Below are positions 19,163 to 49,200 of a DNA stretch of 64,000 bases, piece after piece. How positions within the stretch are numbered: position 1 is the first letter of the stretch; every line of letters begins with the position of its first letter. The DNA comes from Candidatus Rifleibacteriota bacterium (GTDB lineage: Bacteria > Muiribacteriota > Ozemobacteria > Ozemobacterales > Ozemobacteraceae). Below the pieces are notes generated by a model that made no database searches, was not told where the DNA came from, and was given only the letters and a program-made list of their open reading frames with translations. The stretch covers positions 82,814 through 146,813 of the forward strand of contig JAFPZP010000066.1 in NCBI GenBank assembly GCA_017417215.1, given 5' to 3'. The position numbers and the translations under genes are program-made.

Positions 19163-19178
19163 GATAAAGGAAGCTTAG

Positions 19179-31500: not shown

Positions 31501-34500
31501 GAGATGTTGTTGTATTATATGTATAAATGTAATTCGGTGGAACACTCATTACTAGCGGAGTTTGATTTGCAGAACCTCCGATAGCTGTGAGATCTAGTGA
31601 TACTGTGAGATGTTCGGGAGCAACTAAAGAAAAGTTAACTTCAGCTACAGAGTTTTCTGTATAGTTGATTCTATTATTATTTGTAATATTGTCTGCGTTT
31701 ACAGTAAACATTGTTATTTCAGGAGGCTTGTTGTCTATAGCTATTTCTGGAGTGTAGCTGGTTACTGAGTTATCGCAGCCATCATAGAGAGTAATTGCCC
31801 AAGATGCATTTACATTGTTTAAAGTTCCTGTTGCAATTTTAACATCATATGTGTATATGCCTATATTAGCTGGGTCATATATCATTGGAACTGAGCCTGT
31901 ATCTGGGTCTATGCTCGTTAAATCTATGATTGGTCTTTGTCCATCATTTCCTGAAACATTTACTGTAAATGATATTGTGTCACCAATTCTTAATGGTGTT
32001 GCTCCGCTTGTTCCAACTGTAATTGAATTTATTACAGGTGGGTTAAGGTCGACTTTCTGGAAGTAAGTGCTCTGCTTGGCAACTTTATTCCCAGATTTAT
32101 CATACATCATGAAGTTAAATTGGTAATTTGTTTGTTCTTCCAAACCTATCGATTCTGTTGCTATTATTACTTGTCTGTAAAGATTAGATCCTTCTTCCAT
32201 ACTAATAAAATTAGTTGGAGGTGGAGGAGTTACGAGATTCAGGTTATTGTCAACATACTTCATTGAACCATCTTCTAGTTTGCATAGATAGGTTACGTCT
32301 AAAGTTGCAGTAGCATGGTCATCATTTGAAGTTTCTTTAATATATGGCAGTGTAAATGTAATAGTTTTCTTGGTGTTGATAGAATCAGGATATTTATCGG
32401 TGGTTGAAGTATGATTTACTAATGTGACAGTTGGTTCTTGTGGGTCAGGTGGATTTTGGTCTAGGGTTAAAAATGTAAATGAAGCAATATGAATATCACC
32501 AGTATCCTGGTGTACTGCTTTGTTCCCCGCATTGTCCTTGATTTCTACTGGGAAAATTGCACCATTATTGATTGGACCAGTTGCTATATCAAAGCTGTAG
32601 GAAAATTCATTACCCATGCTTGACATGTATTCTTTGCTTAAGTTGCCTAACTGGGTTAAATCAATTACTACTGTAATTCCATCGTCTGAATTAGCAAGAA
32701 GAACTTTTGTTGTGATACTGTCTCCAATAATAATATAAGGATAGTTTTGCTGATTTAAGGCCACACTTTGTGAAATATAGACAGGTGGCTCGTTATCAAC
32801 TGGGTGAGTGATTTGTTTAGATGATATGTTTCCGTTACTGTCTTGTGCTATTAATGTAAAAGGAAAATCGCTTTCATCGACAGTGCCACTTGCAACAGTA
32901 TGACGATATTGCCAGTTGTTTCCAGAACTGGTTGTTAGGTTTTTAACTCCTGAATCATCTAGGGCAGTTAAGTCTATTGTTACTGGATTATTTGGAGCAT
33001 TAGCACCAGAGATTGTTGCGGAAAAAGTGATTTTGTCTTTGTTTAGTATGCTGCCATCTGTTCCTGTTGCGCCAGTAATATTGAAACTTTCTATTCTAGG
33101 ACCAACATTGTCTACAATTATAGGTGGAGTTGTGGTTTTCGTTATGGTGTTGTTATAACGGTCTGTGGCAGTAACTTCAAAAGTTACTTGTTCTCCGTCT
33201 AATTGTAGCATAGTTAAACCACCTGTATATGTTGCAACATATTGCGGTGGAACTAATGTATCATCGTATATCAGGTTTAGAGTCGTTCCCCCAATAGGTG
33301 ATAAATCAACTACTACAGTAGTCATTTCTGTATTAGTTGTAACTATTTCTGAATGAAAATAAAGTTTTGATGTTGCTGTTGCAACATTAGTTACTCTGTT
33401 TTCTGCAGAGTAAATTGTAACTTTTGATGTTTTATGCGAAAATTCACCTAAGTCAACTATATTGTTGTAGGTTGCTTCTTTTGTAATTGTGTTTCCTGCT
33501 TTATCTTTTGCAGTGAATTGAAAGGTCAGAGTATTGTCATAGTAACAGGTCTGGTCAGGAAGAAAAGTTAAAGTTCCTTGAAATGTTGCAGTGCTTCCTG
33601 CGGTTGGATTTCCGTTTACTACAAGTTCTTTTGGAAGAGTTCCGTCATAGGCGCTAGGATGATTGGTTGTTAATTCATTGCTGGTAACAGTTACTGTGTC
33701 TCCATCATAGTTTGATATTGTTGCTGTAAAAGTAAATGTGTGACCAGGAATTGCTACAACATTACCTGCATTGTTTGCAATCGTGACAGTCAGAGTTGGA
33801 GCTCTACTGTCTATCGTTAAATTCAGGGCTTCGTTGTCCTGATATGTAGTTGTGTTTCCAACATCATCAACCATTGTTAAATTACATGGAAGAACTAGTT
33901 CGTAGTTGTTTGGTACTGTGAATGTTGTAGTAAATGTTCTATTCGCACTTGATGTCATATTGGCTGGTGGATAACCAATAGGAGATAAGTCAACAATAAT
34001 TGAGTTGATGTCGTCATCGTTTACTTTTTGAGTTAATACTACAACATCACCTGCTTTTAATACTCTGCCGGCTACGTAATTTGCACCGTTGACTGTGCAT
34101 GTCATTCCACCGTTTCTTGTAGGAGGTTTGTTGTCGAATGTGTATGAAGGAGCTGGTGAAAAACTAATAGTATCACTAGCGTTTCCTATAAATATTGGTA
34201 TATTTACTGGATTTTGGTTTTCTTTTGTTCCTTCAACTACAGTAAAAGTTCCTTGTGCAAAATAGTTTTCTCCGCCAATATTTGTTATGCTTAAAGTATT
34301 TAAACCTGGGGTACATATCCCTGATAAATCTACAACTGCATTATTACCATTTGCATTGCTTTTAAAATAAACGCTTACATTGATTACGCTGTTTATTCTT
34401 GCAGGATTATCTGCTGAAGTTACAGTAGCACTTATAGATACAGGTGGTTCTGCAAAAACAGGATGCAATATTGTGATAAATAATATTGTTAAAAGCAGAA

Positions 34501-34531: not shown

Positions 34532-34587
34532 CTCTTCTCCTTGAATAAAGCCAATTAGGAGAGAACTGGCTTTGTTCATATTTTTCT

Positions 34588-34681: not shown

Positions 34682-34709
34682 TTGACAATGGTATCAGATT
34701 TGCTAGAAT
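34682..34709 (+). promoter_or_regulatory. sigma70-like promoter candidate for the central operon (TTGACA-16-TAGAAT)
   Basis: TTGACA at 34682-34687 and TAGAAT at 34704-34709. The ATG at 34721 is only about 11 nt past the -10, so the leader would be very short. Confidence 0.4.
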
Positions 34710-34720
34710 TATTTTAATTT

Positions 34721-35446
34721 ATGTACAGAAATAGCATATTAAAATATATCTTTTTAATAGTAATTATGTTGTTGTGCAGAGCATCAACAGCTTCTGCATG
34801 CAGTCTTGCCTTACATGATTGGCAGTTGAAATTTTTTTATAAAATTCCTATAAATGCTCCTTTTATTCCATTGTCTGAAATCGCTGTTATTCAAAAACAG
34901 TTTAATAGAGCAGTAACAGATAGATTGTTCTGGGCTGTAAAACCTGGTGTTTTAACCCCATTCAATGATTTTATTATTTCTTTTATTGATGGTTGGGTCT
35001 CAAAAGTAAAATGGATAATAGTTCCCAACAATAAGTCTGTTATTAAACTAGCTAGAAGCTTTTCTAATGATGAAAATAAGCCTTTAATAGTTGGTTCTGA
35101 TAAAAATTATCTTAAAATAGCTGTTTTTTTAGATGCAAATTCAAATAATAATTGTTGTCAGATTGTTTTGGCTCAAGATAGCCGCATAAGATGCATTTTC
35201 CAAGACCCCAATAAGCCCTGGGCTCAAGAATATAGTATGGAGAGCTGGTTCTCTTTGATATTTTACAGACTTCCTATTCCGGGTTATATTTTGTCATTTT
35301 CTACTTATCCTATAGATGGCAATAGAGTTGCATTATATGAAGATCATCCTTTGGTTGAAACTCTATTGAGCAAAAAAATGCTCATGCGTAGACCAGATTT
35401 AGTTATCGACCCTTATTCTTTTGATTTTCCGGATTTACCAGAATGA
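34721..35446 (+). CDS. secreted protein of unknown function (first gene of central operon)
   Basis: 241 aa with signal peptide MYRNSILKYIFLIVIMLLCRASTASA. An ATGA 4-nt overlap joins it to the next gene. Confidence 0.6.
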   Translation: MYRNSILKYIFLIVIMLLCRASTASACSLALHDWQLKFFYKIPINAPFIPLSEIAVIQKQFNRAVTDRLFWAVKPGVLTPFNDFIISFIDGWVSKVKWIIVPNNKSVIKLARSFSNDENKPLIVGSDKNYLKIAVFLDANSNNNCCQIVLAQDSRIRCIFQDPNKPWAQEYSMESWFSLIFYRLPIPGYILSFSTYPIDGNRVALYEDHPLVETLLSKKMLMRRPDLVIDPYSFDFPDLPE

Positions 35447-36102
35447 AAAAATATGTAAAAATTTTATTACTCGTTTTTCCTTGCCTTTTGCCTTTCTCGT
35501 TATTTGGGCAACCTTTTGGGGAGGCAGATTTAGAACGTTTGATTATGAATCATCCTATGATGAAGAATTACGATGCTAAAACAGGTCATTTTAAGAATAC
35601 TCCTTATGAATTAAAGAATGTTGCTGATTTGAAGTTGGAAAATGCTTCTATGTCATCTGAAATAAAGGAAATAGAAAGCAAAGAATTAAATAATTCTGTG
35701 GCGGCAATCTCTTCTGAAATCGAGGATGAAGATGCGTTCTGGGATAATGTGGTTTCTCTTGGTGTTAGAAAATATCAGCTTAAATATAAAATCCAGAAGA
35801 ATGAAAATATGATTATTAGTGATGGAAAGCCTGGCTCGGAGAAGTTATATCCTATTATAGACAATATCTGCAATGATATTTTTGTTCCAATGTATGATAA
35901 AAACAAAGTTATATTGAATAAACAGCCTAGATATCTGACTAAAAAGCCTGAATTGAATGGAAAAGATTTGCATGCTTTCTGGTCCAGACCTGATGAAAAA
36001 GTCCTCTGTGATTATCTTCAATATTCTTCCTTTATTGGTCTTATGTTCCCTTCTGTAGACAAGACCATTCTTTTTCAGAAAACTTCAGGAGATACGAAAT
36101 GA
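35443..36102 (+). CDS. short Skp/OmpH-like periplasmic protein (paralog 1)
   Basis: 219 aa with a signal peptide. Its N-terminal motif DLERLIMNHPMM is shared with the 36099 and 38941 products. It also has a coiled-coil-like middle and a DKNKVILNKQ stretch. An ATGA overlap joins it to the next gene. Confidence 0.4.
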   Translation: MKKYVKILLLVFPCLLPFSLFGQPFGEADLERLIMNHPMMKNYDAKTGHFKNTPYELKNVADLKLENASMSSEIKEIESKELNNSVAAISSEIEDEDAFWDNVVSLGVRKYQLKYKIQKNENMIISDGKPGSEKLYPIIDNICNDIFVPMYDKNKVILNKQPRYLTKKPELNGKDLHAFWSRPDEKVLCDYLQYSSFIGLMFPSVDKTILFQKTSGDTK

Positions 36103-37034
36103 AAAGATTGAGATATGTTTTTATTTGTATTTTTATACTTCTTTCTACTCAGTCTGTCTGGGCTATAAATGCTAATGAAGTGGCAACTATAGATTTGTCT
36201 ATGGCTTTGTGCTTGCACCCAAAAATGTCTTTGTTCGATTTTAATAGAATTGGTTTCTATAAAGTTGAATTTGGTCTTTCTGAAGAAGAATTCAATGAAA
36301 AAACTTATTCTTTAAGAGCTTCTGCCCCAGATCGTTCTGAAGAATTAAATAAATTGCAGAAGGAGTTAGATGATCTTTATGAAGAACGAAATAAAATATC
36401 TGATCTTTACGTAAATATAGATGAGGAAAAGCAAAAAAAGATTGATGAGCTGATGTCTGCTTCTTTGGCTAAAGAAAAAGAGTTGAATGATAAGATTCTT
36501 GATATTAACTATCAAACAATGAATTACGATTTGACTTCTCCTTCTGAAACTCGAGCTATATTGGAAGAAATCGAAAAAGATATTTTTGAAGCTATTAATC
36601 AGGTTGTAGAGGAAGAAAAATATTCTGTAGTTCTAAATTCTACTATTCCGGTGCCTTATACATTTACTAAAAATTATTATAATAGTGAAATATATGGGCA
36701 GGGTATTCCAGGTATAAACTTTATGCTTTTTTATTCTTTCCTGGCAATGAATAATCTGGCTAGTCCTTTAGATGAGGTTCCTCCCTCAAGAGATTTAATT
36801 AATTGGCTTGAGCTGACAAGATACCCAGGAACAGTAAATTTATTGCCTATGAAACCTTATCCTTTGGTCTTGTCAGGGGGAAAAAGCATATTGTCATCTG
36901 TTGTTAAAAAGATATATAATAAATATAAAATAAAACCTGCTATATATAATGTGGTTGATTCTGTTATAATTAAAATAGAACAGTTGCAAAATGGGAAAAA
37001 TGTCGAGCAGAAGACTGTAAAATATGATTTTTAA
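36099..37034 (+). CDS. Skp/OmpH-like periplasmic chaperone-like protein with C-terminal extension (paralog 2)
   Basis: 311 aa with a signal peptide (cleavage after VWA). It has the motif IDLSMALCLHPKM, a charged coiled-coil region, then IFEAINQVVEEEKYSVVLNST, which resembles the Skp C-terminal (kgy.lVld) segment. Confidence 0.45.
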   Translation: MKRLRYVFICIFILLSTQSVWAINANEVATIDLSMALCLHPKMSLFDFNRIGFYKVEFGLSEEEFNEKTYSLRASAPDRSEELNKLQKELDDLYEERNKISDLYVNIDEEKQKKIDELMSASLAKEKELNDKILDINYQTMNYDLTSPSETRAILEEIEKDIFEAINQVVEEEKYSVVLNSTIPVPYTFTKNYYNSEIYGQGIPGINFMLFYSFLAMNNLASPLDEVPPSRDLINWLELTRYPGTVNLLPMKPYPLVLSGGKSILSSVVKKIYNKYKIKPAIYNVVDSVIIKIEQLQNGKNVEQKTVKYDF

Positions 37035-37851
37035 TTTAAGTCGAGTTAAACTTATGCATAAAAACAAAAAAGGTTTTACTGTTGCTGAAGTAATCGTGGC
37101 TGCTGCTATATTTATGGCTTTCTCAGGCGCTCTTTTTTCTCTTTATAGAATGGGAAGCCGTATGTTTGTCTCTGGTTCTTGGAAGTTTACTCGCCAAAAA
37201 GAAGCGGAACGTTTTTTTGAAATATTAAAAGAACGTGTTGAACAGGCTTCTAATATGGTTAAAATAGATCCATCAAGTACTCCTCAGATTGAAACAAATG
37301 CTTCAAGATTTATGACCAAAAAAGGCGTTGTTATCGATTTAGCTGAAAATACAAAAGCTTCTGGATCTAATATACAACTTGCGGAATTTGCAGTTTGTAA
37401 ACCCTGTCAGATTCTTTCTTCCAGCAATAGAAAAACAGGAATCATTGTTCTTCATAGTTTAACTGTTGTTCCAGATAGCGATTCTGGTCTCTATAAGCTT
37501 AATCTATTTGTAAAAAGAATAGATGATAATAGTCTTACAGATTGCTTTTCTATGGGTGCTGCAGATGGTTTGAATATGACTCAGGCTAACTTTTTGGGTG
37601 ACCCAGTGAGTTTCGGTTTGCAACCAGTTCCAGGTATTTTTACATTAAGAGATGTTTGTAGTGTAACTCTTAATTATTCTGAAGGCGCAGAAGAATCTGG
37701 AGCTTCTGGTAACTTACAAGCAATAAAACCTATCCTTTATGAAGTTAGAGTAAAGATGCGCAACCCCAAACATGCACAAACCGTATTGGAAATGGGGTAT
37801 AAATTCAAGATTGATGGCTCTGTTAAGGTAGAGGAGGTGGGCGCAAGATAA
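37024..37851 (+). CDS. prepilin-type N-terminal domain protein (PilW/GspJ-size minor pilin-like)
   Basis: It has the class III signal-like KKGFTVAEVIVAAAIFMAF (G-1, F+1, E+5). The likely start is the ATG at 37054 (MHKNKKGFT), giving about 265 aa. A TAATG 1-nt overlap joins it to the next gene. Confidence 0.7.
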   Translation: MIFNLSRVKLMHKNKKGFTVAEVIVAAAIFMAFSGALFSLYRMGSRMFVSGSWKFTRQKEAERFFEILKERVEQASNMVKIDPSSTPQIETNASRFMTKKGVVIDLAENTKASGSNIQLAEFAVCKPCQILSSSNRKTGIIVLHSLTVVPDSDSGLYKLNLFVKRIDDNSLTDCFSMGAADGLNMTQANFLGDPVSFGLQPVPGIFTLRDVCSVTLNYSEGAEESGASGNLQAIKPILYEVRVKMRNPKHAQTVLEMGYKFKIDGSVKVEEVGAR

Positions 37852-38399
37852 TGTTAAAAAAATTATTCTTTAAAACTAAAAAGGCAGTAACTTTGGTTGA
37901 AATTCTTCTTGCTGTTGTTCTTATGGCCGGTGCTTTTTTGCCTATTATGGGCCTGATGTCTTCTTCTATAAAGGTTACTGAGCAGGATGAAAATACTCAA
38001 CGTGCAGTTATGCTTTGTCAGGAAAAACTAAATGCTGTTTTACAAATGCCTTTTGATAAATTTGCTGTTAGTACAACTCCAATTGTGTCTGGTACCTATA
38101 ATAATAATGAAATTGTTGCTTCTTTTGGAGCCCAGATTATTGATGGAGTAACTTATACTTCTTCATTATTAGTTGAACAATACAATGTTAGCTTTAATGT
38201 TCCTACATGTGATTTTACTAGAAAAGGTGATTCCAGATATAAGAATGATCCTTCTCAATGGGGTTTTAACGTAATTCAATGTGATGCTTCTGATAAAGTT
38301 AAAAGATATACTGTTACTGTAAATTGGCAAGATAAAGGCAGAGGTAATCAGAAATTTTATACTCTTTCTTCTTTAAAAGCAGATATAAGGGAGAAATAA
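37851..38399 (+). CDS. pilin-like protein with degenerate prepilin signal (PilV/GspI-like)
   Basis: 182 aa. The N-terminus KTKKAVTLVEILLAVVLMAGAF keeps TLVE with Glu at +5 but has Ala-Val where the canonical Gly-Phe would be. Confidence 0.6.
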   Translation: MLKKLFFKTKKAVTLVEILLAVVLMAGAFLPIMGLMSSSIKVTEQDENTQRAVMLCQEKLNAVLQMPFDKFAVSTTPIVSGTYNNNEIVASFGAQIIDGVTYTSSLLVEQYNVSFNVPTCDFTRKGDSRYKNDPSQWGFNVIQCDASDKVKRYTVTVNWQDKGRGNQKFYTLSSLKADIREK

Positions 38400-38400
38400 T

Positions 38401-38925
38401 ATGAGAAAATCATGTAATTTAAAAAGAGGTAGTGCTGTTGCTCTTTGTCTTATTTTCGCTACAGTTCTGCTTATGATGGGCTTGGCTTATAGTAAACAGA
38501 CTGCTACTTCAAAGCGACAAACTGTTCAAATAGATGAAAGAATAAAATTAGAATATTTGGCTCATGGTGTAACAGAACTTGCATTGTTGAAGTTTCAGCT
38601 TTATCCTGCTGATTTTTATGCTTGTATGGAAGCTTCAAAACTTAATGATTCCTCTTATTTAACCTCTTTTACAACAGGTGCTCCTGAATTTCAATTTACA
38701 GGTACTAGGGCTGAAAATAGATCTATTTCTTCTTTTAATAGTACTTCGGTCAATCTTCAGTTAGCTAGTATGACTATTCTTACAAATAATAAATGGAATA
38801 ATGAAGTTCTATATATAGAAGCTTTTGCTAATTATACAGATCAATATCATAAAAGTATAGATAAAGTAGTCACTAGATTGGTTGATTTGGATAGACATAG
38901 TTTAATTCCACAAAGTAATAGATAG
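38401..38925 (+). CDS. PilX-N-like pilus minor-component-like protein
   Basis: 174 aa. The N-terminus LKRGSAVALCLIFATVLLMMGLAY has the RGS + hydrophobic helix of the PilX_N type and no Glu5. Confidence 0.5.
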   Translation: MRKSCNLKRGSAVALCLIFATVLLMMGLAYSKQTATSKRQTVQIDERIKLEYLAHGVTELALLKFQLYPADFYACMEASKLNDSSYLTSFTTGAPEFQFTGTRAENRSISSFNSTSVNLQLASMTILTNNKWNNEVLYIEAFANYTDQYHKSIDKVVTRLVDLDRHSLIPQSNR

Positions 38926-38940
38926 AATAGGATATTGTTT

Positions 38941-39906
38941 ATGAAGAAGAGTTGTTTTTTATTTTTGTTTATTTTAGGTTTTGTAATTTCTGCTTCTAAT
39001 TCTGTTTTTGCTCAAAGGGGTGGAGCATATATTGGCAAAATAGATGTAAAAACCGTTTTTTTATTACATCCATTGATGATTAGTTATAGCCCTGAAAGAC
39101 AGGCATTTAAAGTTACTCGTGATGATGTATCTAAAAAAAGAGCTGTAGCAGAAGCAAGTTCTAACAAGGAAGAAGTTCGCAGACTTAATGCTTTAATGAA
39201 AAGTATTACTGGTAAAATAAATGAAGAAGAAAAGAGCTTTCAGAAAAAAATGTCTGCTCTTTATGATAAATTTATGAAAAATATCACTAATTTAGCTACA
39301 GCTGAGGCTGGTTTTAACCGGGTTACATACAAAGCGGAAACTGATAATGCAGAAGTATCTCATAATGCTAAATTAACAGCTCTATATGCCCAATATAATG
39401 ATGCCGAAGAAAAACTTTTAAATCTTACTCAGTTTAATTTTGAAGAAGGTTATACAACTCCAGATGAAACAGAAAAGAAATTTATTGCTATTTTAAATGA
39501 AATAAAAACATATGCTCAGCGTGCAGCAGATCAGAAAGGTGTATCAATAGTTTTGAACACCAGTTATAAAAGAACAGTTATGAGACCAGATTCTAGAGAT
39601 TCTGAAAGTGGATATGTTCCTGATGGAATGGCTTTGGGTGCAATTTTTAATACTAATTTCCCACCAGAATTAGCTAGAGATGAAGCTGCAGTTGCTGGTT
39701 ATTATAGCAATGTCTCTACTTTAACCCAAAACTGGTTGAAGAATTGTTCTCCTATAACAGGACGTTTTAAGAGCTCTATGCTTGAAAATGATGTTTTTAT
39801 TGGTGGTGTGGATTTGACTGCTGATGTTTTGGCTGCTTTATTTAAAGCTTATAAACTAGACCCTAATATATCTAATGCGGTTATTAAAGCAGCTATAAGT
39901 TATTAA
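38941..39906 (+). CDS. Skp/OmpH-like periplasmic chaperone-like protein with C-terminal extension (paralog 3)
   Basis: I prefer the ATG at 38941; the track starts at TTG 38935. It has a signal peptide (SVFA), the motif IDVKTVFLLHPLM, a coiled-coil region, and IKTYAQRAADQKGVSIVLNTS (Skp-like kG..iVl segment). Confidence 0.45.
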   Translation: MKKSCFLFLFILGFVISASNSVFAQRGGAYIGKIDVKTVFLLHPLMISYSPERQAFKVTRDDVSKKRAVAEASSNKEEVRRLNALMKSITGKINEEEKSFQKKMSALYDKFMKNITNLATAEAGFNRVTYKAETDNAEVSHNAKLTALYAQYNDAEEKLLNLTQFNFEEGYTTPDETEKKFIAILNEIKTYAQRAADQKGVSIVLNTSYKRTVMRPDSRDSESGYVPDGMALGAIFNTNFPPELARDEAAVAGYYSNVSTLTQNWLKNCSPITGRFKSSMLENDVFIGGVDLTADVLAALFKAYKLDPNISNAVIKAAISY

Positions 39907-40082
39907 TATAAACTTAGTAAAAATATAAACCGGTATGTAAAAATATTTTTACTGGGTATTGGTATGAATACGATAATACTAATAGAGTAAATAAGGTACA
40001 AAATATGCATATCAAAACTAGATATAATTGTTTTGTATTTTGTTGATAGATACAAAAAACATAGTTAACAGGAGTTAACCAT

Positions 40083-43000
40083 ATGAGAAAAACGTCGAGT
40101 TTTTGTTTGGGACTATTGGGCTTAGTAGCTCTGTCGTTGTTATGTCCTCAACAAGCCAAGGCATTGGACTCACAGTATTTAAGAAACGGTGAGTGTTATT
40201 TGCTAATTGGTGAAGGGGCTTCTACGCTGAGAGGTGTTTATAGATTAAACAATCCTGCAGCTAATCCAGCTAAATATTATAATAATAACCGAGTTATTCC
40301 TGGTGGTAGTATTAATAACACCCTAGGTTTTAATGTTGACCTTAACAGAAAAATATATACTTTTACTGAACAGGTTGAATCAACTTGGCAGGTTTCTTCT
40401 GCTCCACTTTATAGACAGGTTCTTGATGGCGGAGTAACTGCCGACCAGGCAGACTATGGCTATCATTCATATATTCACTATGACCATAGAAGCTGGAACA
40501 AAGGTGATATTTATAGAACTGGTCCTTCAGGAAGAAATATACATAAAGACGGCGGCGGAACCTGGAGTGGTTTTAAATCCGCTGGACCTGGTACTGAAGT
40601 ATCAGGCGATTATACCTCAACATTGCCGAGTATGACAGGTGCTGCTTCACTTGGTAAAATTAGTGGTAAAAAATGGTATCAAATTCCAAATGCTAGCTGG
40701 TATTCTAACTGGAAGACTGGTTCAGCAGACCCTATGGGCGATTATGGTAAGAAATCCAATGGAAAGTATGGATATTTATATAACGGATTCAATACTTTCT
40801 ATTATGTATTTGGCGATAAAGTTCAAGAAAAGAACCATAATTACAAACTCTGGACTTGGAATCCTAGCAATGCTGAACTTGATACTCCTTCATATACTAA
40901 AAATACAGGAGATACTGTTGCTGTAACTAAAGAAGAAAAGATTTCCAGAAATGTTTATGCTGGTTGTCTTGATGGTTGTGGTGGTGCGTCAGGTAGTGGT
41001 AGTTCACAGCCTCTACCAATGCTTAATGATATAGCTTTTCAGCCTCCGTTAAAAGACTCTAGTTCTAGAACTTATTTCTATTCAAGAACTAAAGGTGGTA
41101 CTAACGGTAAAGTTACTAAAAACAATTCGGCTTATAATCCTGGTTCTGGCAACCCATTAATTGGTCTGAAAGATAGTACTGATACATTCTGGCTCTGTAT
41201 TTCTTTGAGAAATGTTTCAACAGATTATGTGTATTGCTTAGGTACTACTGTAATAAAAGATTGGTATAAACAGGCTTTTGGTTCTGCTCCATCTAATATG
41301 AACATTACTGCTGTTACTGTTTCCAATCAGTGGGACCAGCAGGGCGGTATTGTTTACGCTTATGATAAAGCTAATAAAAAGATTTACAAGTTTGAACGAA
41401 AAGAAACTTCTGGAACACCGATTTCAAAAGAAAGATTCCTAGCATTAGACTTAAATTCTATAATGAATGAAATTGATGCTTTGAATAATTCTGAATTAGA
41501 TGACATCAAGGCAGATGGTTTCGGCAGTCTTTATTTTGCTATGAGCCATCCTAGCAAGAATGTAGATTCATATAACCCTGCACAACATTTTAAGCCAAGT
41601 GATTGTATACATGTTCACAAGACTGGTCATGATAATACTAAGAAAGAAACTACTTTCTTGATGATATTCAAGCAGGATTACGGCAAGAAAGTTTTTCAAA
41701 GAAATTATCTTACTGGTGATATTACGAAAGTTGGTAGTAAAGACTTTGCAAGCAGAATATATAATGTTACTTGTAAAATCAAAGATGCTGGTTGGAATGT
41801 TATTCAGAATTATCCATCCGGTTGTAATTTTGCAAGATTAAATGCAGAACTAGCTTCATGGTCAGCAACTGTTGCTGGTTATACCTATTCTTCAGCAACA
41901 AATTCTTGGCCATCTAGTTATTACCAGAGAGGCAGAGGTGCATGTACTCATTATTCTGAACTTAACTATAATGACCCAGGTCAGGCTAAATTGGCTGTTA
42001 TCAACGTTCCAACTCCTCCAAAGGTTATCAGCTTAGGTAATAAAAAATCATATCTTGATATAGTTGGTCCGTATCTTGATGTATTTGCTATTCCTGATAA
42101 AGTAAATAGAAGCACTAATCAGGGTGATGGTTTGCTTAATACTTCTAATTTAAGTACAGAACAGTTATATTTCTATATGGTTGAAAACTATCCTCTTGAC
42201 GACGGTGCTCAAGACCCGACAGCTCAACCCAACTGGGATAATGATGGCAGAATGGGTGGTTTTATTACCTCTGTTCAAGATCCGGCTCCATATAACCCAA
42301 GTACTCATCCAAGCGGTGTTAAGTATGAATGGAGAACTTGGATGGTATTAGATTTGTATGGTAACTGTACTTGTAGATTAATTCAGAAAAATGATGTAAA
42401 TAACGGTTATCCGTATCATTCTGTTTACTCTTCTGTTCCTGGTAAGTTTATTATTACCTGCCGTGCAACATATAACTGGTATGATTATGATGCATTGACT
42501 TTTGGTAGTACTGTTGACGATTTAAGTAGTGTTCTTCACACTAATGAAGTGGCTCTACCTGTTGCTGTAGGTGGTATTTCAACTCAATGGGCATCTGATA
42601 GACTTACACAGATTAAAAATTCATTTAAATACAAAGGGCCTAATACTGGCAATAAAGAAATCCTGTTTATGAATTATCCTGTTGATCAAAAAGGGAATTC
42701 AATTAATGTTGATTATAGCCCAATTGTATCGGATGCAAATGGCGGAAAATACTTAGCTCTTGAACCTATTTCTATTGGTGAAGTAGGAGAAGCTCCTGAA
42801 GAACCAACTGTAAAATTCCCAATTACTCGTTGTGATAATATTCCAGGTGTTGCTAGTGATTCTTATATGAATACAGATTCATTCTGGAGTCCTGTTCCAG
42901 ACGATGATAAAGTTTTTGGTATTGCAGCAGGTGAAGTATATAACTGGCGTATAGATAAAAATGCACAGGCATATATGTTTAAGGATATTTCTAAATTTAA

Positions 43001-45143
43001 CAGCACAAATTCAAAAGATCCAAATTATAACTATCTTGCTGATCAGATGCTTACTCCAGGTTCCGGTTATTATCGTAATACAGCTAAGGTAAAATTCATA
43101 AATAATCTTGGAGACCTTTATTGGACAGATAAGAAGATTTATGTTTCAGCCAAGCTTATTTATAAAGTTCCAAATGGCAGTGGCTATAAAGAAATTTCTT
43201 TGCCATTAAAACAGGCTCAAGATAATAGTTCTTCTATAGGTAGTGACTATGAATTTGAATATACAGTAAAAGATGAAAGCCAATTATGGCAACCTGGTGG
43301 TAATATCCCTGTTTATTATACTACTGCAAGTAATTTGCCTCCTACTGACCCAATGGATGCAAGAATTCGAATCACTATGAGAAGATCATATATGTATACA
43401 TTGTGGTCTTTGTCTCCAGATGGTCAGCCCAGGTATCCAGCCCCAGTACCTGGTGAATTTAAAATGGTAGGTGAAGCTACTGTTCGTATTATGGATACAA
43501 ATAAACCAAAAGTAGATTGGGAAAAGACTGTTCCAAACAATCTCTTTGCTTTAACAGGCGGAGCATTAAAATCTGGAGTCGGTCCAACAGGCAGAGTTAA
43601 TCCTGATAACGTAAGCTTTACTGTTACTGATAATAATCCTTGGGAAGCTGTAGAAACAGAAGAAGGCTTGTCAATAGAACAACATATTAGAAATATCAAC
43701 ACCAACTATGGTCATGCTTATTGTCAATCCTACTGTAGTAAGAATTCTTATCTCAAAAAACTATTTGATGATATGAATCTTCCTAATACAACAGGCACAA
43801 AGGAAGACATCAGAACTGCAAAAGCTAAGAAACAAAAGACTTCGCATTTGAATTATAAGCCCTTGTTCTCAAGACAGGCTAGAGATATAAGAATTGGTTT
43901 TGAAACCGTAAGTCGTGATAAAGTAAGTGGCAAGGTAACATTAGACAAGGCAGATAATATGTCTGCAGCAGCTGGAAGACAGTTCTCTAGTGACAATGAC
44001 AGTGATTATGCTGTTCACTATCGTGCAGGTAAAAATCACAATGCAAAATACCAGAAGTCTTTATCTTTGGGTGAAATGAGTTATTCTAGAACTGTTGGTG
44101 CTACTACTGTTTATGATTCTACTTTGGCATATAGTATACCGGTTAATAATATCAAGATTGGTACTACTAATGATGATTCAAGCCAGAATAAGGTTCCTGA
44201 TGGTTATGCAAATAATACTCCAGGTTATAGAGTTGGAGACAAAATCAGACCTTATAAGTTCTTTGTTAGCTTAACAGACTCTTCTGGTAACTATACAGGT
44301 GAAAAAGAACTTAACGTTGTTCTGAATGTTAAGGACGATATTCCACCTATTGGTTATGGCTCAGTTCATGATGCTAAGAATGATCTTGTTTCATATTTCC
44401 CATATGAAGTAGATTCTGATGTGGCTACAGATCCAGCAAAGGCTCCATCTTATAGAGTTAAAGGTGAAGACTATTATTTCTCTCAGAATCTTAATAGTGC
44501 ATTCTTAAGAGGAAACTCTTGGGCTTCAACTGATTCAACTGGATTGGTTAGATATAATACTATAGCTGGTCCTTATAAGGCTATGCTTCCAGTATCTGAT
44601 GATATTTCTACTGGAGAATCTGTGAAAGATAATGATGCATATATTAATCTGGTTAAAGGAAGAATTCCACCGTTAGCAGTTGAAGATAACGTTGAATGCC
44701 GTTTCAATGCCTATGTTAACGATAACTGTGGTAATGCAACCGCAACATTAACTCTTAAATACTTTGATACTGACGGACGTAGTGGTGCTCAGACTGTATT
44801 AACTAGAAGTATTAGAACCACAAATGGTTGGATTTCAGCAGCAAATGTAGATGGTTCTACTAAGCTGAATATCTCTTCTTCAACAGTAGAATTGAATACA
44901 TTGTTCAGAGGTAATTCTGGCCAATTCCCAATGGCTATTCCTATAACCATTGTATCTGAAGACAATGCCAGAGATTGGGACTATTACCTCGGTGGTGCTG
45001 AAGATGGTAATGGCGACTGGTCTTGGGGAACTGTTCATTTTGGTAAGGACACACCAAATAAGAGAACATTTAAGACCTCATTACCAGTATTTGGTCACGA
45101 ACTTGACATTAGAACACTTGATAAGACAATTCAGAATAGATAA
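40083..45143 (+). CDS. 1686-aa secreted protein of unknown function, in the PilY1-like position after the pilin-like genes
   Basis: The signal peptide is MRKTSSFCLGLLGLVALSLLCPQQAKA. The protein is rich in W/Y/N/G and shows no obvious internal repeats, unlike the neighbouring giants. An AGGAG RBS precedes it and a strong terminator follows. Confidence 0.7.
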   Translation: MRKTSSFCLGLLGLVALSLLCPQQAKALDSQYLRNGECYLLIGEGASTLRGVYRLNNPAANPAKYYNNNRVIPGGSINNTLGFNVDLNRKIYTFTEQVESTWQVSSAPLYRQVLDGGVTADQADYGYHSYIHYDHRSWNKGDIYRTGPSGRNIHKDGGGTWSGFKSAGPGTEVSGDYTSTLPSMTGAASLGKISGKKWYQIPNASWYSNWKTGSADPMGDYGKKSNGKYGYLYNGFNTFYYVFGDKVQEKNHNYKLWTWNPSNAELDTPSYTKNTGDTVAVTKEEKISRNVYAGCLDGCGGASGSGSSQPLPMLNDIAFQPPLKDSSSRTYFYSRTKGGTNGKVTKNNSAYNPGSGNPLIGLKDSTDTFWLCISLRNVSTDYVYCLGTTVIKDWYKQAFGSAPSNMNITAVTVSNQWDQQGGIVYAYDKANKKIYKFERKETSGTPISKERFLALDLNSIMNEIDALNNSELDDIKADGFGSLYFAMSHPSKNVDSYNPAQHFKPSDCIHVHKTGHDNTKKETTFLMIFKQDYGKKVFQRNYLTGDITKVGSKDFASRIYNVTCKIKDAGWNVIQNYPSGCNFARLNAELASWSATVAGYTYSSATNSWPSSYYQRGRGACTHYSELNYNDPGQAKLAVINVPTPPKVISLGNKKSYLDIVGPYLDVFAIPDKVNRSTNQGDGLLNTSNLSTEQLYFYMVENYPLDDGAQDPTAQPNWDNDGRMGGFITSVQDPAPYNPSTHPSGVKYEWRTWMVLDLYGNCTCRLIQKNDVNNGYPYHSVYSSVPGKFIITCRATYNWYDYDALTFGSTVDDLSSVLHTNEVALPVAVGGISTQWASDRLTQIKNSFKYKGPNTGNKEILFMNYPVDQKGNSINVDYSPIVSDANGGKYLALEPISIGEVGEAPEEPTVKFPITRCDNIPGVASDSYMNTDSFWSPVPDDDKVFGIAAGEVYNWRIDKNAQAYMFKDISKFNSTNSKDPNYNYLADQMLTPGSGYYRNTAKVKFINNLGDLYWTDKKIYVSAKLIYKVPNGSGYKEISLPLKQAQDNSSSIGSDYEFEYTVKDESQLWQPGGNIPVYYTTASNLPPTDPMDARIRITMRRSYMYTLWSLSPDGQPRYPAPVPGEFKMVGEATVRIMDTNKPKVDWEKTVPNNLFALTGGALKSGVGPTGRVNPDNVSFTVTDNNPWEAVETEEGLSIEQHIRNINTNYGHAYCQSYCSKNSYLKKLFDDMNLPNTTGTKEDIRTAKAKKQKTSHLNYKPLFSRQARDIRIGFETVSRDKVSGKVTLDKADNMSAAAGRQFSSDNDSDYAVHYRAGKNHNAKYQKSLSLGEMSYSRTVGATTVYDSTLAYSIPVNNIKIGTTNDDSSQNKVPDGYANNTPGYRVGDKIRPYKFFVSLTDSSGNYTGEKELNVVLNVKDDIPPIGYGSVHDAKNDLVSYFPYEVDSDVATDPAKAPSYRVKGEDYYFSQNLNSAFLRGNSWASTDSTGLVRYNTIAGPYKAMLPVSDDISTGESVKDNDAYINLVKGRIPPLAVEDNVECRFNAYVNDNCGNATATLTLKYFDTDGRSGAQTVLTRSIRTTNGWISAANVDGSTKLNISSSTVELNTLFRGNSGQFPMAIPITIVSEDNARDWDYYLGGAEDGNGDWSWGTVHFGKDTPNKRTFKTSLPVFGHELDIRTLDKTIQNR

Positions 45144-45165
45144 CTTTATTGTCTAGTAAGTTTCT

Positions 45166-45198
45166 AAAAAAACCTCAGCGAAAGCTGAGGTTTTTTTT
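45166..45198 (+). terminator. rho-independent terminator after the 1686-aa gene
   Basis: aaaaaa-acctcagc-gaaa-gctgaggt-tttttttt: a perfect 8-bp stem, a GAAA loop and a T8 run. Confidence 0.9.
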
Positions 45199-45263
45199 CT
45201 AATAAATTAGTCTAATTATTCCGATAATTTTCAAAATAATTATTTTATTTAAATGGGATAGCT

Positions 45264-46058
45264 ATGAAAAAAATTAACATGATAGTAATTTATAAAGTGG
45301 TATTTTCGTTTATGCTTGCTACCGCTATTATGTTAATTGGTTGTGGTGGTTCTGGTGGTGGAGAAGGTCGACAAACTTTACCAGGAGAAAACCCAACTGG
45401 TCCAATAATTATTCCAGGAACAAATACTGGTACTTATACACAAACTCAAACTGGGACAGGCACAGGCACTGGCACTGGTAGCGGAACAGGAACTGGAACC
45501 TCAATAGAATATCTAACTCCAGCTGATTTGTTAAAAAGAGGTTGGGAGATAATGAAAGAGGGGAATTATGGTGGAAGCATGACTTATTTTGATCATGTTA
45601 TATCTAATTCCAATTCTACTCCAGAACAGCGTCAGCAGGCTTATAACGGTCGTGGTTGGGCAAGAGCCAAATATTACAATACTATTGAAGGGTTAGATGA
45701 TTTTAAAGCTTCTTATCAAATGGGTGAGCTTAATACTAATGCCTATAAAGAATCTATATTAGGTTATGCTCTAGCTTTAATTCAAGCTACAGGAGATTCA
45801 AATTTTGATAGAGCAATACAACTATTGGCAGATGAACTTCAATTAGCTAATCCAACTTTTGTATTAGGTATAGAACATACTTGTATCGGTGTTAGTTCAC
45901 CAGAAGCTCATGCTATGCTTGCCTATGCATATTATTGGAGAAATCAGCCAGAATTAGCTAAAGCTCAGATAAATCAAGCGCGTGTAGATGATTCATCAAC
46001 TACAGGAACTGTTTATCAGATTTTTACAACTTTAACAGCCGCTGGATTATTCAATTAG
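45264..46058 (+). CDS. TPR-like lipoprotein with (Thr-Gly)n linker (paralog A)
   Basis: 264 aa with lipobox MLIGC, a linker GGSGGGEG...TGTGTGTGTGSGTGTGT, then a helical repeat domain. It shares AYNGRGWARAKY and AHAMLAYAYYW with the 56315 product. Confidence 0.65.
   Translation: MKKINMIVIYKVVFSFMLATAIMLIGCGGSGGGEGRQTLPGENPTGPIIIPGTNTGTYTQTQTGTGTGTGTGSGTGTGTSIEYLTPADLLKRGWEIMKEGNYGGSMTYFDHVISNSNSTPEQRQQAYNGRGWARAKYYNTIEGLDDFKASYQMGELNTNAYKESILGYALALIQATGDSNFDRAIQLLADELQLANPTFVLGIEHTCIGVSSPEAHAMLAYAYYWRNQPELAKAQINQARVDDSSTTGTVYQIFTTLTAAGLFN
45450..45500 (+). repeat. coding (ACN-GGN)n microrepeat encoding TGTGTGTGTGSGTGTGT
   Basis: Direct reading: actgggacaggcacaggcactggcactggtagcggaacaggaactggaacc. 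Confidence 0.8.
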
Positions 46059-46120: not shown

Positions 46121-46236
46121 AGAATAATTTAATGTTATAGTAGATTAGGCTGTGCACTAAAAATATACTGTGCACGCTTTTGTCTTGTAAAAAAATAGTT
46201 GAAACCAAGGGTGTTTCACAGGAGAAATATATAAAT

Positions 46237-49200
46237 ATGGCAAACAATAAGGTAACAAACAAGTCTTTCTATTGGTGTTTTAGCATTTTTGTGCTAATTC
46301 TTTTTATGACAACGGCCTCTACCGGGCAGGCTGCAATAAAGAATCCTGCGGTAGCTTTAACTTCTGATGCTAATGGCGACGGAATTGCAGGTATTGGAGA
46401 TACAATTACTTTAACTTGTAGATCCACTACTAACGATGCAACTATATATGTTACTTCATTACCTTCGTTAGGATTCACACAGTTACCATTGGTTGATATC
46501 GGCAACGGCTTGTATTCTGCCATATATACAGTTAGTGCCGGTAATGTTAATAGTCAGATTCAATTTATTTTTGATGATAACTCAGGAAGCACCCAGTCTG
46601 TTACCACTGGGTTTGTTCTGAATAGTAAACGCCCTTCAGCTAACGGCAGACCTTCTACAAATCGTGGTACTTCTTCTGATGGAACTTTTAAGAAAAACGA
46701 TACTTTAACTATTACTTTTAAGCTCAATAATTCAAATAACGGCGAAACAATGTATGCTGATTTAAGTGCATTGGGATTGGGCTATGTAGATATGGGTGCC
46801 AATGCAAACACTTTCAGTTGTAGTGTTGTTATGCCGGCAAATAAAGAGGGCACCAACCTCAGTTTCCCAGTAACTGCAATGAATGAAGCTGGTAACTCTG
46901 TTACCTGGACTTCAGCAGCCATAAACTACGATACTATTAATCCTGTAGTTCAGTCTGCTACAGCAGTAAACCAGACATCTAACAAACAGTATGTTACTGT
47001 TGGAGATACTATTAAAATACAGGCCGTAATCAGCAAATGGGATAATGATATTGTTACTGCTTCAAACTCTCTGCTTTTCCCAGGCGGTCCCGTTACAATG
47101 GAACATGTTTCCGGTGATACTATTGGGGCTATGGCTGTTTATGAATACTCTCATCCGGTTACAGAAGAAAATATATCTAATATTTCAACCTGTTTTGACA
47201 TAACAGTAATGGATGATGCAGAAAACACTGTAAAGAAATCCACAAACTATATAAGACTGGATACTCTTCCACCAGAATTTAAAACCTTATCTATTAAAAT
47301 TACTGACCCTGTAAAAGGTCTTTTGTCTAATGTAGCTATAATTGATGATAACCTTCAAATATTCGGTGATATGTCATCTTTGATGACAGATGTCACCTTA
47401 TTGGTTGATTTATCTGCAATAGGTGGCGTTTCTAATCAGATTATTCCTTTCGCTGATGGTTCTACTGCTCCTTCTGTTGCTACAACAAGTTTTTGTTTGA
47501 ATTATAATGTTGGTCAATATACTTCAGAAGATAATATTCCAAGAGCTTTTACTGTTACAGCTAAAGATATTGCGGGTAATATTATTACTCAGGTTACAAT
47601 GCCTGTAATCTATGTTGATAACTTACCTCCTACTATAAGTGCAGCTCAATTTATAAATGTAACATCAGCTAATCAGCCTGTAAAATTAGGCGATCAAATA
47701 GCTATTACTGCTTCTGTTGGTAATCCAGACAATGGAATTGTTTATGCAGATATCAGTAAGTTAGGCGGTTCTGATAAGGCTGAATTAAGTTTGTTCTCTG
47801 GGGTCAGTTACAGATTAGATCATGTCGTCAGTGAATCTATTAATCCTATGTTACCAGGCGGTATTGATCAATCATTAAGTTTTGTTGTTTTTGCTCAAGA
47901 TAATGCTGGTAATATTGTAGATACTACAACAGGAAATCTGATGGTTGATACAGAACCACCATTGATTTTGAATGCGACATATACTGTCAATCCAGCTCTT
48001 TCTGCTACACATAAATTTGTAAAAGCAGGCGATAGAATAACTTTTAAAGTTCAGTTAGCTAGTTCTACATCAACTGTTCATGATGGTGAAACTGTTACTA
48101 TGGATTTATCTGCTTTTGAAGGGCAGAGTGATAATACTGAACTTAATTATGGTGGTGGTTGGTATACTTATTCTTTTGATATTCCTGCTGGTAATTTGAA
48201 TTTTGACAATAACTTTACTGCCGTCGCCAAAGATAATGCTGGCAATACTGTTACAAGATCTATTCAAGTTAAAATAGACAATCAGAAGCCAGTTGTAGGT
48301 CCAATAGGTATTAATTTCCTGACAGATACTGCTAAAACTGGTGTAATTAATATAGGTGATAGAATTGAAATAATTGTTCCTGTTGATGATGCTGATGAAG
48401 GTTACTGCTATATGGATTTATCCATTATTGGTAGTAGCAGTAACTGCATTATTCCTTATGATCAGTTTGACACAGCTTTGAACAGATATTACCTTGTTAT
48501 AGATTGTAAAGATGCAGCCATAGAAAATCCTAGCTATGTATTTACTGCAAATGTATATGATAAAGCAGGAAATAAAATGAGTGGCATATCGTCACCATTT
48601 GTAGTTGACTGCCGCCGACCTGTCTGCAATGATTTCAGCGTAACTCATATAAAGAAAAAAGGAAAATCAGGCGTAGTAAACGTTGGTGATCAGATTAAAT
48701 TTACTGTTGAAGTTGACCCCTCAACTTTTGATAATGCTTCTGTAACAGTAAATCTTAAAAAGTTGGGTGGTTCATCTGCTCAAAAACTGGAAGATATTGG
48801 CGATAACATCTGGACATACACCTATACTGTTGAAAAGGGTGATACCAACGGCGAAGATGTTTTATTTAAATGTAAAATAACTGATGATGCAGGAAACTTT
48901 GTAGAAACTAATGCTCCAAAGAGTTTCTTCGTAGATAATTGCCCGGTAGAAATTGACAGTATTACTTTTGCTCAGACTACAGATACCAACGGCAACGATA
49001 TAGTTGACTTAGACGGTTCCTTTGTTGTTACTCCTGTTTACGCAACAGATTCAGTTACATTAACAGTAAATCTTTCTGCAAATGCAAGCGTTACTGTTGA
49101 TTTGACTAAATTCGGATATAACAATACTGCTTATTCTATTCCTGTTGTAACCTCTATTAGCGGTTATAAAGCCGAAGAAGTTATTGAGCCTAAGAAAGGT

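Follow-up and report, generated by a model that had tools for sequence, protein, structure and literature searches.

We analysed a 64,000-nucleotide (nt) stretch of DNA from a Candidatus Rifleibacteriota (Riflebacteria) bacterium (assembly GCA_017417215.1, contig JAFPZP010000066.1, contig positions 82,814 to 146,813; hereafter the window, numbered from its first letter), in which a cluster of co-oriented genes at 34721-46058 encodes three pilin-like proteins in its middle and, 3′ to them, a giant secreted protein of 1686 amino acids (aa). The window is chromosomal DNA, about 0.35 in G+C, and its Mla, OmpH and TPR-lipoprotein genes show that the host is a diderm bacterium. As argued below, the cluster is probably a tip and initiation module of a type IV filament, one in which the giant would do the work of a PilY1-type adhesin to which it is not related. 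The features on which this reading turns are the following.

37024-37851, plus strand: PilJ/PilW-like minor pilin (J-like), 275 aa (265 aa from the ATG at 37054); N-terminus MHKNKKG/FTVAEVIVA, with Glu5

37851-38399, plus strand: PilI/PilV-like minor pilin (I-like), 182 aa; N-terminus KTKKA/VTLVEILLA, with Glu5 and Ala at -1

38401-38925, plus strand: PilK/PilX-like minor pilin (K-like), 174 aa; N-terminus NLKRG/SAVALCLIF, no Glu5

40083-45143, plus strand: partner protein of 1686 aa, a candidate tip adhesin; Sec-exported, with a predicted N-terminal beta-propeller and C-terminal beta-sandwich stalk

40083-40163, plus strand: Sec (signal peptidase I) signal peptide of the partner, aa 1-27, MRKTSSFCLGLLGLVALSLLCPQQAKA/LD, cut after AKA as read from the translation

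42231-42248, plus strand: DxDxDG-type motif of the partner, a candidate Ca2+ site, aa 717-722; NWDNDG in the window, DWDGDG in the family consensus

45105-45140, plus strand: 12-residue C-terminal tail of the partner, DIRTLDKTIQNR, aa 1675-1686, a candidate plug; low predicted confidence yet conserved

A preliminary description of the window had reported the three prepilin-type N-termini and the 1686-aa secreted protein, and its open reading frames (ORFs), coordinates and sequences were all correct. It had also compared the locus to pilVWX-pilY1, with the giant directly after the trio in the place of PilY1. The order is in fact J-like, I-like, K-like; the trio and the giant are separated by a 323-aa Skp/OmpH-like gene (38935-39906), and three co-oriented genes 5′ to the trio had been missed. 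What survives of the synteny is the association itself: the trio is linked to a large secreted protein in every locus with readable flanks.

These loci came from a profile scan of a genome collection with one genome per species, which gave 49 module loci, and from later look-ups that added more; they are cited by number (L001 and so on) where they must be told apart. Nearly all of the 49 are from Riflebacteria metagenome-assembled genomes (MAGs), the closest being a rumen MAG at 70% identity, and three that bear other labels (Avigastranaerophilus, Methylomirabilis and Erysipelotrichia) are taken to be mis-binned. The giant has 86 homologues, none with a Pfam domain, and the informative source names among them are Candidatus Riflebacteria or Ozemobacteraceae except for two MAGs (Erysipelotrichia and Clostridiales). 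The module is thus confined to Candidatus Riflebacteria, with about 50 syntenic loci.

The N-termini of the first two pilin-like families have the composition of a class III signal peptide, with a basic leader, Gly or Ala at -1, a hydrophobic residue at +1 and Glu at +5. When all 139 window ORFs with 50 aa or more were scanned by motif for such N-termini, the Glu5 type appeared in these two genes only; the K-type pattern was returned for the 174-aa gene alone, and one more instance, at 9746-11482, was recognised by eye. Phe+1, Thr+2 and Glu+5 are invariant in 22 aligned J-like sequences, as are Leu+3 and Glu+5 in 21 aligned I-like sequences. In the K-like family (18 aligned), Gly occupies -1 in all 18 and Glu is at +5 in none. 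Position -1 is Gly in 20 and Ala in 2 of the J-like sequences, and Gly in 15 and Ala in 6 of the I-like ones. The Ala-Val cleavage site of the 182-aa protein had been described as degenerate, a view that does not hold: Ala is better regarded as a tolerated variant, because it alternates with Gly within orthologous families and is also found in a J-like paralogue. Ala is the sole -1 substitution that prepilin peptidase is known still to cleave.

Orthologues measure 258-285 (J-like), 177-212 (I-like) and 160-183 aa (K-like), and the K-like protein measures 160-205 aa over all module types. Two Glu5 subunits together with a short one that has no Glu5 make up the PilI/PilJ/PilK pattern (GspI/J/K, PilV/W/X), and on length the trio fits the PilW/V/X minor pilins of type IVa pili (T4aP) rather than GspJ/I/K of the type II secretion system (T2SS). 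The proposal of a minor-pilin set is in this respect borne out.

Matches of the trio to established families are confined to the N-terminal helix. The Pfam N_methyl model (PF07963) scores the J-like protein at 20.8 bits and the I-like protein at 13.2 bits, both under the cut-off of 21.2. NCBIfam gives weak matches to GspJ, GspI/XpsI, ComGE and PilV, all far under their cut-offs and over the N-terminal helix only; for the 182-aa protein these are XpsI, GspI and ComGE at E = 2e-3 to 4e-3, and for the 275-aa protein GspJ. J-like orthologues are annotated as prepilin-type N-terminal cleavage/methylation domain proteins, many with a precomputed PF07963 match. Against the PDB, the J-like family profile matches the N-terminal helices of pilins (E = 3e-3), and a profile-profile comparison of the J-like and I-like families gives a probability of 94% across the N-terminal helix. 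With the same J-like profile, a word-indexed search returned 48 proteins, of which the named ones are all from Riflebacteria, and an exhaustive search of representatives returned 782 relatives at E <= 1e-3. No assignment to GspJ or PilW can be made by sequence, because the 10 distant relatives that were sampled have N_methyl alone, with scores up to 34 bits. The K-like protein has no Pfam or NCBIfam match at E <= 1, PilX_N and T2SSK included, and no sequence match in the PDB. Its gene adjoins both Glu5 pilin genes in all module loci examined, and its C-terminus is conserved, ending in VTRLVDLDR in the window (V-T/V-R-L/I-V-x-L-x-R in the family).

The additional K-type N-terminus belongs to a 578-aa protein (9746-11482, plus strand), which begins with a PilX_N/GspK-like KKRG/LALFFTICVIGLVSLIV and has no Glu5. 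Most Riflebacteria homologues are 54-93% identical, a far stronger conservation than that of the tip module, and identity to those of Candidatus Wallbacteria is about 30%; the genomic context is always an unrelated, orphan one. Profile-profile comparison with the 174-aa K-like family gave a probability of 24% over 84 N-terminal residues. The protein could be a cis-complemented K-type subunit or a CpaL-like one.

The giant was modelled with AlphaFold2 as two overlapping halves with deep alignments, giving a mean predicted local distance difference test score (pLDDT) of 91.2 and a predicted template modelling score (pTM) of 0.77 for aa 25-900, and 87.9 and 0.81 for aa 880-1686. In these models the N-terminal part is a beta-propeller region with two very long inserted beta-hairpins, and the C-terminal part is a string of beta-sandwich domains with a helical insert. 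Foldseek comparison of aa 25-900 with the PDB retrieved only generic propellers, with paraoxonase the best (E = 5e-5, TM 0.35) and cd1 nitrite reductase also matched; PilY1 was not in the top 50. The matches of aa 880-1686 were the integrin alphaV legs, protocadherin, complement C3/alpha-2-macroglobulin, arrestin and immunoglobulin (Ig) domains. Because of these predicted folds, and because nothing enzyme-specific was found, the giant is an adhesin-like beta-propeller head on an Ig-like stalk. Within it, the DxDxDG-type motif has Asp or Asn at 717, 719 and 721 in 30 of 30 family members and Gly722 in 22 of 30, suggesting that this site may bind Ca2+.

Several identities for the giant were considered and set aside. 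The window protein has no Pfam match at E <= 1, and its family profile matches no PDB sequence. Homology to PilY1/PilC is rejected: the Pfam Neisseria_PilC/PilY1 model, the propeller profile search put forward in the preliminary description, matches 0 of 30 family members at E <= 0.1. The fold of the PilY1 C-terminal domain (PDB 3HX6) is not matched either, since the propeller is N-terminal and the C-terminal half consists of beta-sandwich domains, a domain order that in the models is the reverse of that of PilY1. A glycoside hydrolase or other specific enzyme, the fold that would have told against a pilus role, was not seen in the Foldseek searches of either half; such enzyme matches as occur are generic propellers with TM <= 0.35. 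Phage or viral origin found no meaningful Foldseek match against BFVD. The suggestion of a PilY1-type role is therefore left with the Sec signal, the beta-propeller and the conserved, disordered 12-residue tail, and has lost its homology.

In the tail, pLDDT lies below 50 almost throughout (residues 796-798 and 800-807 of the aa 880-1686 model), yet the sequence is conserved: among 30 family members, I1676 is retained in 27, R1677 in 29, T1678 in 26, L/I1679 in 30, D/E1680 in 30 and K1681 in 24. The motif can be written h-x-[IV]-R-x-[LI]-[DE]-[KR], followed by 3-6 residues and the stop codon. It is retained in a subfamily of 1370-1411 aa (e.g., MEIRVIDKKNSDF), in the partner encoded at locus L062 (LDVRILEKNQR), and in the 914-aa partner at L061 (LTIRSLEEKRNRN), for which BLASTP shows no similarity with the window giant (best E = 0.93). 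Of the 1967 ORFs with 100 aa or more in 1.06 Mb of loci, 45 end in it, and every one of these encodes a partner protein or a truncated copy or fragment of one. Across about 24 pairs, the changes in the tail and in the K-like C-terminus follow clades. Both termini are conserved, which is compatible with beta-strand addition.

J-like, I-like and K-like genes and a large partner occur together in every locus with readable flanks, rearranged loci included. Around this core the window cluster contains further genes, which we list before turning to how they are arranged elsewhere.

34682-34709, plus strand: sigma-70-like promoter match, the top one of the region; TTGACA, 16-nt spacer, TAGAAT and a TG extension, 11 of 12 positions

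34721-35446, plus strand: 241-aa exported protein, first gene of the cluster; Cys is the first mature residue (CSLALHDW)

35443-36102, plus strand: 219-aa exported protein; post-signal motif h-D-h-x-x-h-h-x-x-HP-x-M in common with both Skp/OmpH-like proteins

36099-37034, plus strand: 311-aa paralogue of the Skp/OmpH-like periplasmic chaperone type; Pfam OmpH at E = 8.7e-9 and 36.2 bits (cut-off 32.4)

38935-39906, plus strand: 323-aa Skp/OmpH-like protein, directly 5′ of the giant; OmpH E = 0.027, 15.1 bits, under the threshold

45264-46058, plus strand: 264-aa lipoprotein; LIGC lipobox, Gly/Thr-rich linker and TPR-like C-terminal domain

The first six genes of the cluster overlap by up to 11 nt or have at most one base between them. 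The 323-aa gene begins after a gap of 9 nt, and the giant is set off by 176 nt in front and 120 nt behind. The promoter match ends 12 nt 5′ of the first gene, and is suggestive at most because promoter-like sites overall are no commoner than in shuffled sequence. In an alignment of 16 orthologues of the 241-aa protein, the Cys at the first mature position, His32, Asp138 and Arg157 are invariant; the protein has no Pfam or PDB relatives and no detectable link to a known peptidase or sortase; an enzyme of the N-terminal-nucleophile type and a lipoprotein are both possible identities. Pfam gives no match for the 219-aa protein, which is perhaps related to the Skp-like proteins, a relationship suggested by the HP-x-M motif. 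The 311-aa and 323-aa proteins each have a signal peptide and a coiled-coil-rich middle. Among 20 orthologues of the latter, 8 match OmpH at E <= 0.01 (best E = 1.3e-5). They resemble Skp/OmpH (PF03938) in these matches and in the score of the 311-aa protein above the Pfam threshold, and differ from it in being about twice the length of the model (141 positions), in occurring as three paralogues in one operon, and in their linkage to pilin-like genes instead of the usual BamA/LpxD neighbourhood of skp. They would probably serve in the periplasm as holdases, either of the giant or of the K-like pilin in its incomplete state. Homologues of the 264-aa lipoprotein gene are found 3′ of the giant in the closest rumen relatives (L004 and L005) and not in other clades, so that this gene is a clade-specific appendix of the module. 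A paralogous lipoprotein is encoded at 56315-57013 (plus strand, lipobox ANGC), directly 3′ of a 3357-aa gene; both lipoproteins have a Gly/Thr/Ser-rich linker and a TPR-like C-terminal domain, and each gene lies just after that of a giant secreted protein.

Across the phylum, the order seen in the window (Cys-protein of about 240 aa, protein of about 219 aa, Skp/OmpH-like protein of about 311 aa, J-like, I-like, K-like, Skp/OmpH-like protein of about 325 aa, giant) is kept down to 30% identity of the giant, and the 311-aa Skp/OmpH-like gene has a conserved place 5′ of the trio. The 323-aa-type gene adjoins the partner gene in most module types, usually on its 5′ side and in L005 on its 3′ side, and is missing from L061; the 241-aa Cys-protein is likewise present in most module types and missing from L061. 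Other loci are rearranged. In L050, L051 and L053 the order is Skp-like, giant (about 1370 aa), I-like, K-like, J-like and Cys-protein, and in L062 (8978-17249) it is I-like, K-like, J-like, a 200-aa gene, two Skp-like genes and a 1373-aa giant. The retention of the gene set despite rearranged order strongly supports functional linkage. The module of L061 (3688-8258) is minimal, with J-like, I-like and K-like genes and the 914-aa protein and with neither Skp-like nor Cys-His genes. Because it keeps trio and tail and dispenses with the accessory genes, we regard trio plus tail as the invariant core. The L061 and L062 types are both from Ozemobacteraceae, and L062 is the third module of a MAG that also holds L021 and L038.

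Several MAGs have two or three paralogous modules, some with tandem giants, and the partner ranges from 914 to about 1860 aa. At L001:10001-25187 there are partner genes of 1728, 1790 and 1789 aa with a second pilin trio between the last two, and at L005:4859-14986 partner genes of 1675 and 1668 aa lie back to back. Such tandem duplication of the partner genes suggests rapid diversification of the displayed protein.

A precedent for these features comes from two 2026 studies (Ellison et al., PMC13533445; Denic et al., bioRxiv 10.64898/2026.09.18.752573), in which a strand of about 12 residues holds PilC/PilY1 adhesins on pili and licenses pilus assembly. Monomer models leave the last 10 to 12 residues of PilC/PilY1 disordered, at very low pLDDT. 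These residues complete the beta-sheet of PilK by beta-strand addition; this tail is necessary and largely sufficient for piliation and tip localisation (PMC13533445; bioRxiv 10.64898/2026.09.18.752573). According to the same work, GspK of the T2SS brings its own terminal strand in cis, plug sequences vary among systems, and MshQ, a non-homologous protein encoded just 3′ of mshDOP, is predicted to be an in-trans strand donor; use of the plug by unrelated proteins was proposed (PMC13533445; bioRxiv 10.64898/2026.09.18.752573). The Riflebacteria giant has the features that define a plug protein functionally, being a large, Sec-exported, non-pilin protein that is encoded with minor pilins and has a conserved tail disordered in the monomer. 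The module as a whole reproduces what can be read of a plug system from sequence, namely the I/J/K trio with a short K, the Sec-exported neighbour and the disordered, conserved tail.

Comparison with T4aP tip modules (P. aeruginosa fimU-pilVWXY1E, Neisseria pilHIJK with pilC1/2, and the three minor-pilin/PilY1 clusters of Myxococcus xanthus) shows agreement in several respects: three co-encoded class III proteins of the Glu5/Glu5/no-Glu5 type with sizes like those of PilW/PilV/PilX; an adjacent non-pilin protein, over 1000 aa in the T4aP modules as in the window, with a Sec signal, a beta-propeller and a DxDxDG-type motif; conservation of the last 12 or so residues of the partner, disordered in the monomer model; and several paralogous modules per genome, unlinked from machinery genes. 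Unlike in T4aP, the partner in Riflebacteria has no homology to PilY1/PilC (by Pfam in the 30 family members and by profile against the PDB) and no specific fold match, its propeller is N-terminal and its Ig-like stalk C-terminal, the gene order is J-I-K, no FimU/PilH or PilE is encoded, and three Skp/OmpH-like genes and a Cys/His protein lie within the cluster, with partners from 914 to about 1860 aa. The mannose-sensitive haemagglutinin (MSHA) locus of Vibrio cholerae, mshDOP-mshQ, is similar in that a non-PilY1 protein of about 1200 aa is encoded directly 3′ of PilIJK homologues and is predicted to give its extreme C-terminus to the PilK homologue, providing a precedent for a non-homologous partner (PMC13533445). 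In contrast to the module described here, mshQ lies within a complete MSHA machinery locus without Skp-like genes, and no relationship between MshQ and the Riflebacteria protein is expected. TadG/CpaL of tight adherence (Tad) pili and Thermus ComZ are likewise large tip proteins that act with minor pilins, and their extreme C-terminus (in CpaL) or their pilin-like module integrates into the tip complex (PMC13533445); these proteins begin with a pilin-like domain of their own, whereas the giant has no pilin domain and starts with an ordinary Sec signal.

We therefore favour, as reasonably probable, the reading in which the cluster is a type IV filament tip and initiation module, with a non-PilY1 giant plugged into a K-type minor pilin and with Skp-like chaperones added. 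In classification, we take the module to be a variant of the known type IV filament tip that is both new and non-homologous, and that lies outside the PilY1 family. In such a module, the three minor pilins (J/W, 275 aa; I/V, 182 aa; K/X, 174 aa) would be made with class III signal peptides and processed by prepilin peptidase, their N-terminal helices holding them in the inner membrane, and the 1686-aa protein would be exported by Sec to the periplasm. Its last 12 or so residues, disordered on their own, would enter the beta-sheet of the K-like pilin as the missing edge strand. The I-J pair would then recognise the K-giant pair, and the resulting four-protein complex would prime filament polymerisation and finish at the distal tip, where the beta-propeller head on its Ig-like stalk would be displayed as an adhesin or receptor-binding device. 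Until assembly, solubility of the giant, or of the K-like pilin while it is incomplete, would probably depend on the Skp/OmpH-like paralogues. Genes for the motor ATPase, platform protein, secretin, peptidase and major pilin would lie elsewhere, and the several paralogous modules of one genome could provide alternative tips.

Several observations weigh against this reading. The globular domains of the trio have, by sequence, no likeness to known pilins, and the PDB profile matches are to N-terminal helices only. The module encodes neither a GspH/FimU-like fourth minor pilin nor a major pilin. When 8-residue windows of the giant are ordered by conservation, the core of the tail comes 145th among 1679, within the top 9% only, and its contact with the K-like pilin is drawn by analogy and is not a result. 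We know of no minor-pilin operon that includes Skp-like genes. Finally, a search for PilB/PilT-type ATPases came up empty in the window, in some 1 Mb of Riflebacteria sequence surrounding the modules, and in the 3-6 kb past the window ends reached by the retrieved contigs.

The trio could alternatively cap a T2SS-like pseudopilus, and the comparison with the GspI-GspJ-GspK tip (E. coli GspIJK, P. aeruginosa XcpVWX) bears on this possibility. In that reading the trio would be a GspI-J-K cap and the giant a dedicated cargo pushed through a secretin, to be released or re-bound to the surface, with the tail serving as a secretion or recognition signal and not as a permanent anchor. The T2SS tip is indeed a minor-pseudopilin trimer whose K-type subunit has no Glu5, the 182-aa protein gives weak NCBIfam matches to GspI/XpsI and the 275-aa protein to GspJ, the giant is Sec-exported and adhesin-like as are many T2SS substrates, and T2SS tip pseudopilins contact substrates. 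However, the NCBIfam matches fall far under cut-off and cover the helix alone, T2SS genes lie inside the gsp operon with no large partner, T2SS substrates are not normally encoded one-to-one inside minor-pseudopilin operons, and every paralogous module in Riflebacteria has its own large partner. Moreover, the K-like proteins measure 160-205 aa, whereas GspK, about twice as long at some 330 aa, carries its last strand in cis (PMC13533445). We consider a pseudopilus tip unlikely.

The search for filament machinery is relevant to a second alternative. Pfam recognised no pilus or secretion machinery gene among the annotated ORFs of the 64-kb window, in agreement with the preliminary description. 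The ATPase search extended over 1.0 Mb of loci, using tblastn with a PilT sequence and a Walker-A regular expression, and ClpX was the sole match. A T2SSE/PilT ATPase, platform protein, secretin or prepilin peptidase was found neither in the window, nor in the 1.0 Mb of loci, nor in the 3-6 kb beyond the ends; no machinery genes lie beside pilin paralogues, the contexts of the 578-aa K-type protein also having been inspected. A literature search on Riflebacteria found nothing on pili or secretion. These negatives, together with the missing major pilin and H-type linker pilin and the presence of the module's own periplasmic chaperone-like genes, would suit a filament-independent envelope complex, in which the pilin-like proteins, having no motor and forming no polymer, serve only to anchor at the inner membrane or as scaffolds in the periplasm, and the giant is held with Skp-like help, for instance as a periplasm-spanning tether or a fixed surface-display stub. 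In novel gene families per genome, Riflebacteria are also reported to reach the highest density, with 26 phylum-specific synapomorphic families (PMC10849945). Nevertheless, strict Glu5 in two families and Gly or Ala at -1 in all three argue for selection by prepilin peptidase and for filament-like packing of the helices. In model species the machinery genes commonly lie apart from the minor-pilin/PilY1 operon, as they do from fimU-pilVWXY1E in Pseudomonas, and the lack of linkage in Riflebacteria is therefore uninformative. On balance an envelope complex of this kind is improbable.

We also hold it improbable that Riflebacteria have no canonical type IV pilus or T2SS at all and that the module is an autonomous, motor-less derivative of a tip, acting as a fixed envelope-spanning display device. 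If true, three pilin-like anchors and a plug-bearing giant, assembled by dedicated long-armed Skp-like chaperones, would constitute a new class of surface organelle derived from type IV filaments, with several paralogous versions per genome.

That the tail is instead a sorting signal processed by the exported 241-aa protein, in the manner of a sortase or exosortase, with the pilin-like genes as mere neighbours, is very improbable: invariant Cys, His, Asp and Arg residues in that protein are in its favour, as is the fact that short conserved C-terminal motifs are typical of sorting signals, but L061 retains trio and tail although both the Cys/His protein and the Skp-like genes are missing, the tail runs to only some 12 residues with neither a hydrophobic segment nor a processing-site signature, and the 241-aa family has no detectable relation to a known peptidase or sortase.

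The locus offers a natural test, in a deep-branching uncultured phylum, of the use of plugs by unrelated proteins. The partners are unrelated to PilY1, and some to one another, yet all have the short conserved tail and an I/J/K-like trio. If the cluster is a filament tip module plugged by the giant, licensing by beta-strand addition would be a general principle of type IV filaments, irrespective of protein family, and a sequence rule that combines trio and tail could be used to find new tip proteins in metagenomes. Several unexplained phylum-specific gene families of Riflebacteria would gain a cell-surface function. The integrated Skp-like genes would be the first hint of dedicated periplasmic chaperones in tip assembly.

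The surroundings of the cluster are of separate interest. An AddA/AddB-like pair (UvrD-helicase/PD-(D/E)XK nuclease; 1078 and 1101 aa) is encoded at 15926-22484 (plus strand) and is a repeated neighbour of the module in many Riflebacteria (also at L007, L009, L013-L015, L019 and L031); in the window, a 4020-aa gene is inserted between the AddA-like and AddB-like genes. This is probably a plain conserved chromosomal neighbourhood. The cluster is flanked by two further giants, of 4020 aa (22517-34579, minus strand) and 3357 aa (46180-56253, plus strand), both with FlgD_ig and Big_13 domains and both ending in TLK[LI]AVLK. Each has a C-terminal sorting domain of the type IX secretion system (T9SS) type (Por_Secre_tail, 27.2 and 27.1 bits; cut-off 27), and T9SS cargo in a phylum outside the usual Bacteroidota/Fibrobacteres-Chlorobi-Bacteroidetes (FCB) group would be noteworthy. 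The 1686-aa giant was considered as T9SS cargo as well, and this was rejected because, unlike both flanking giants, it has no T9SS C-terminal domain.

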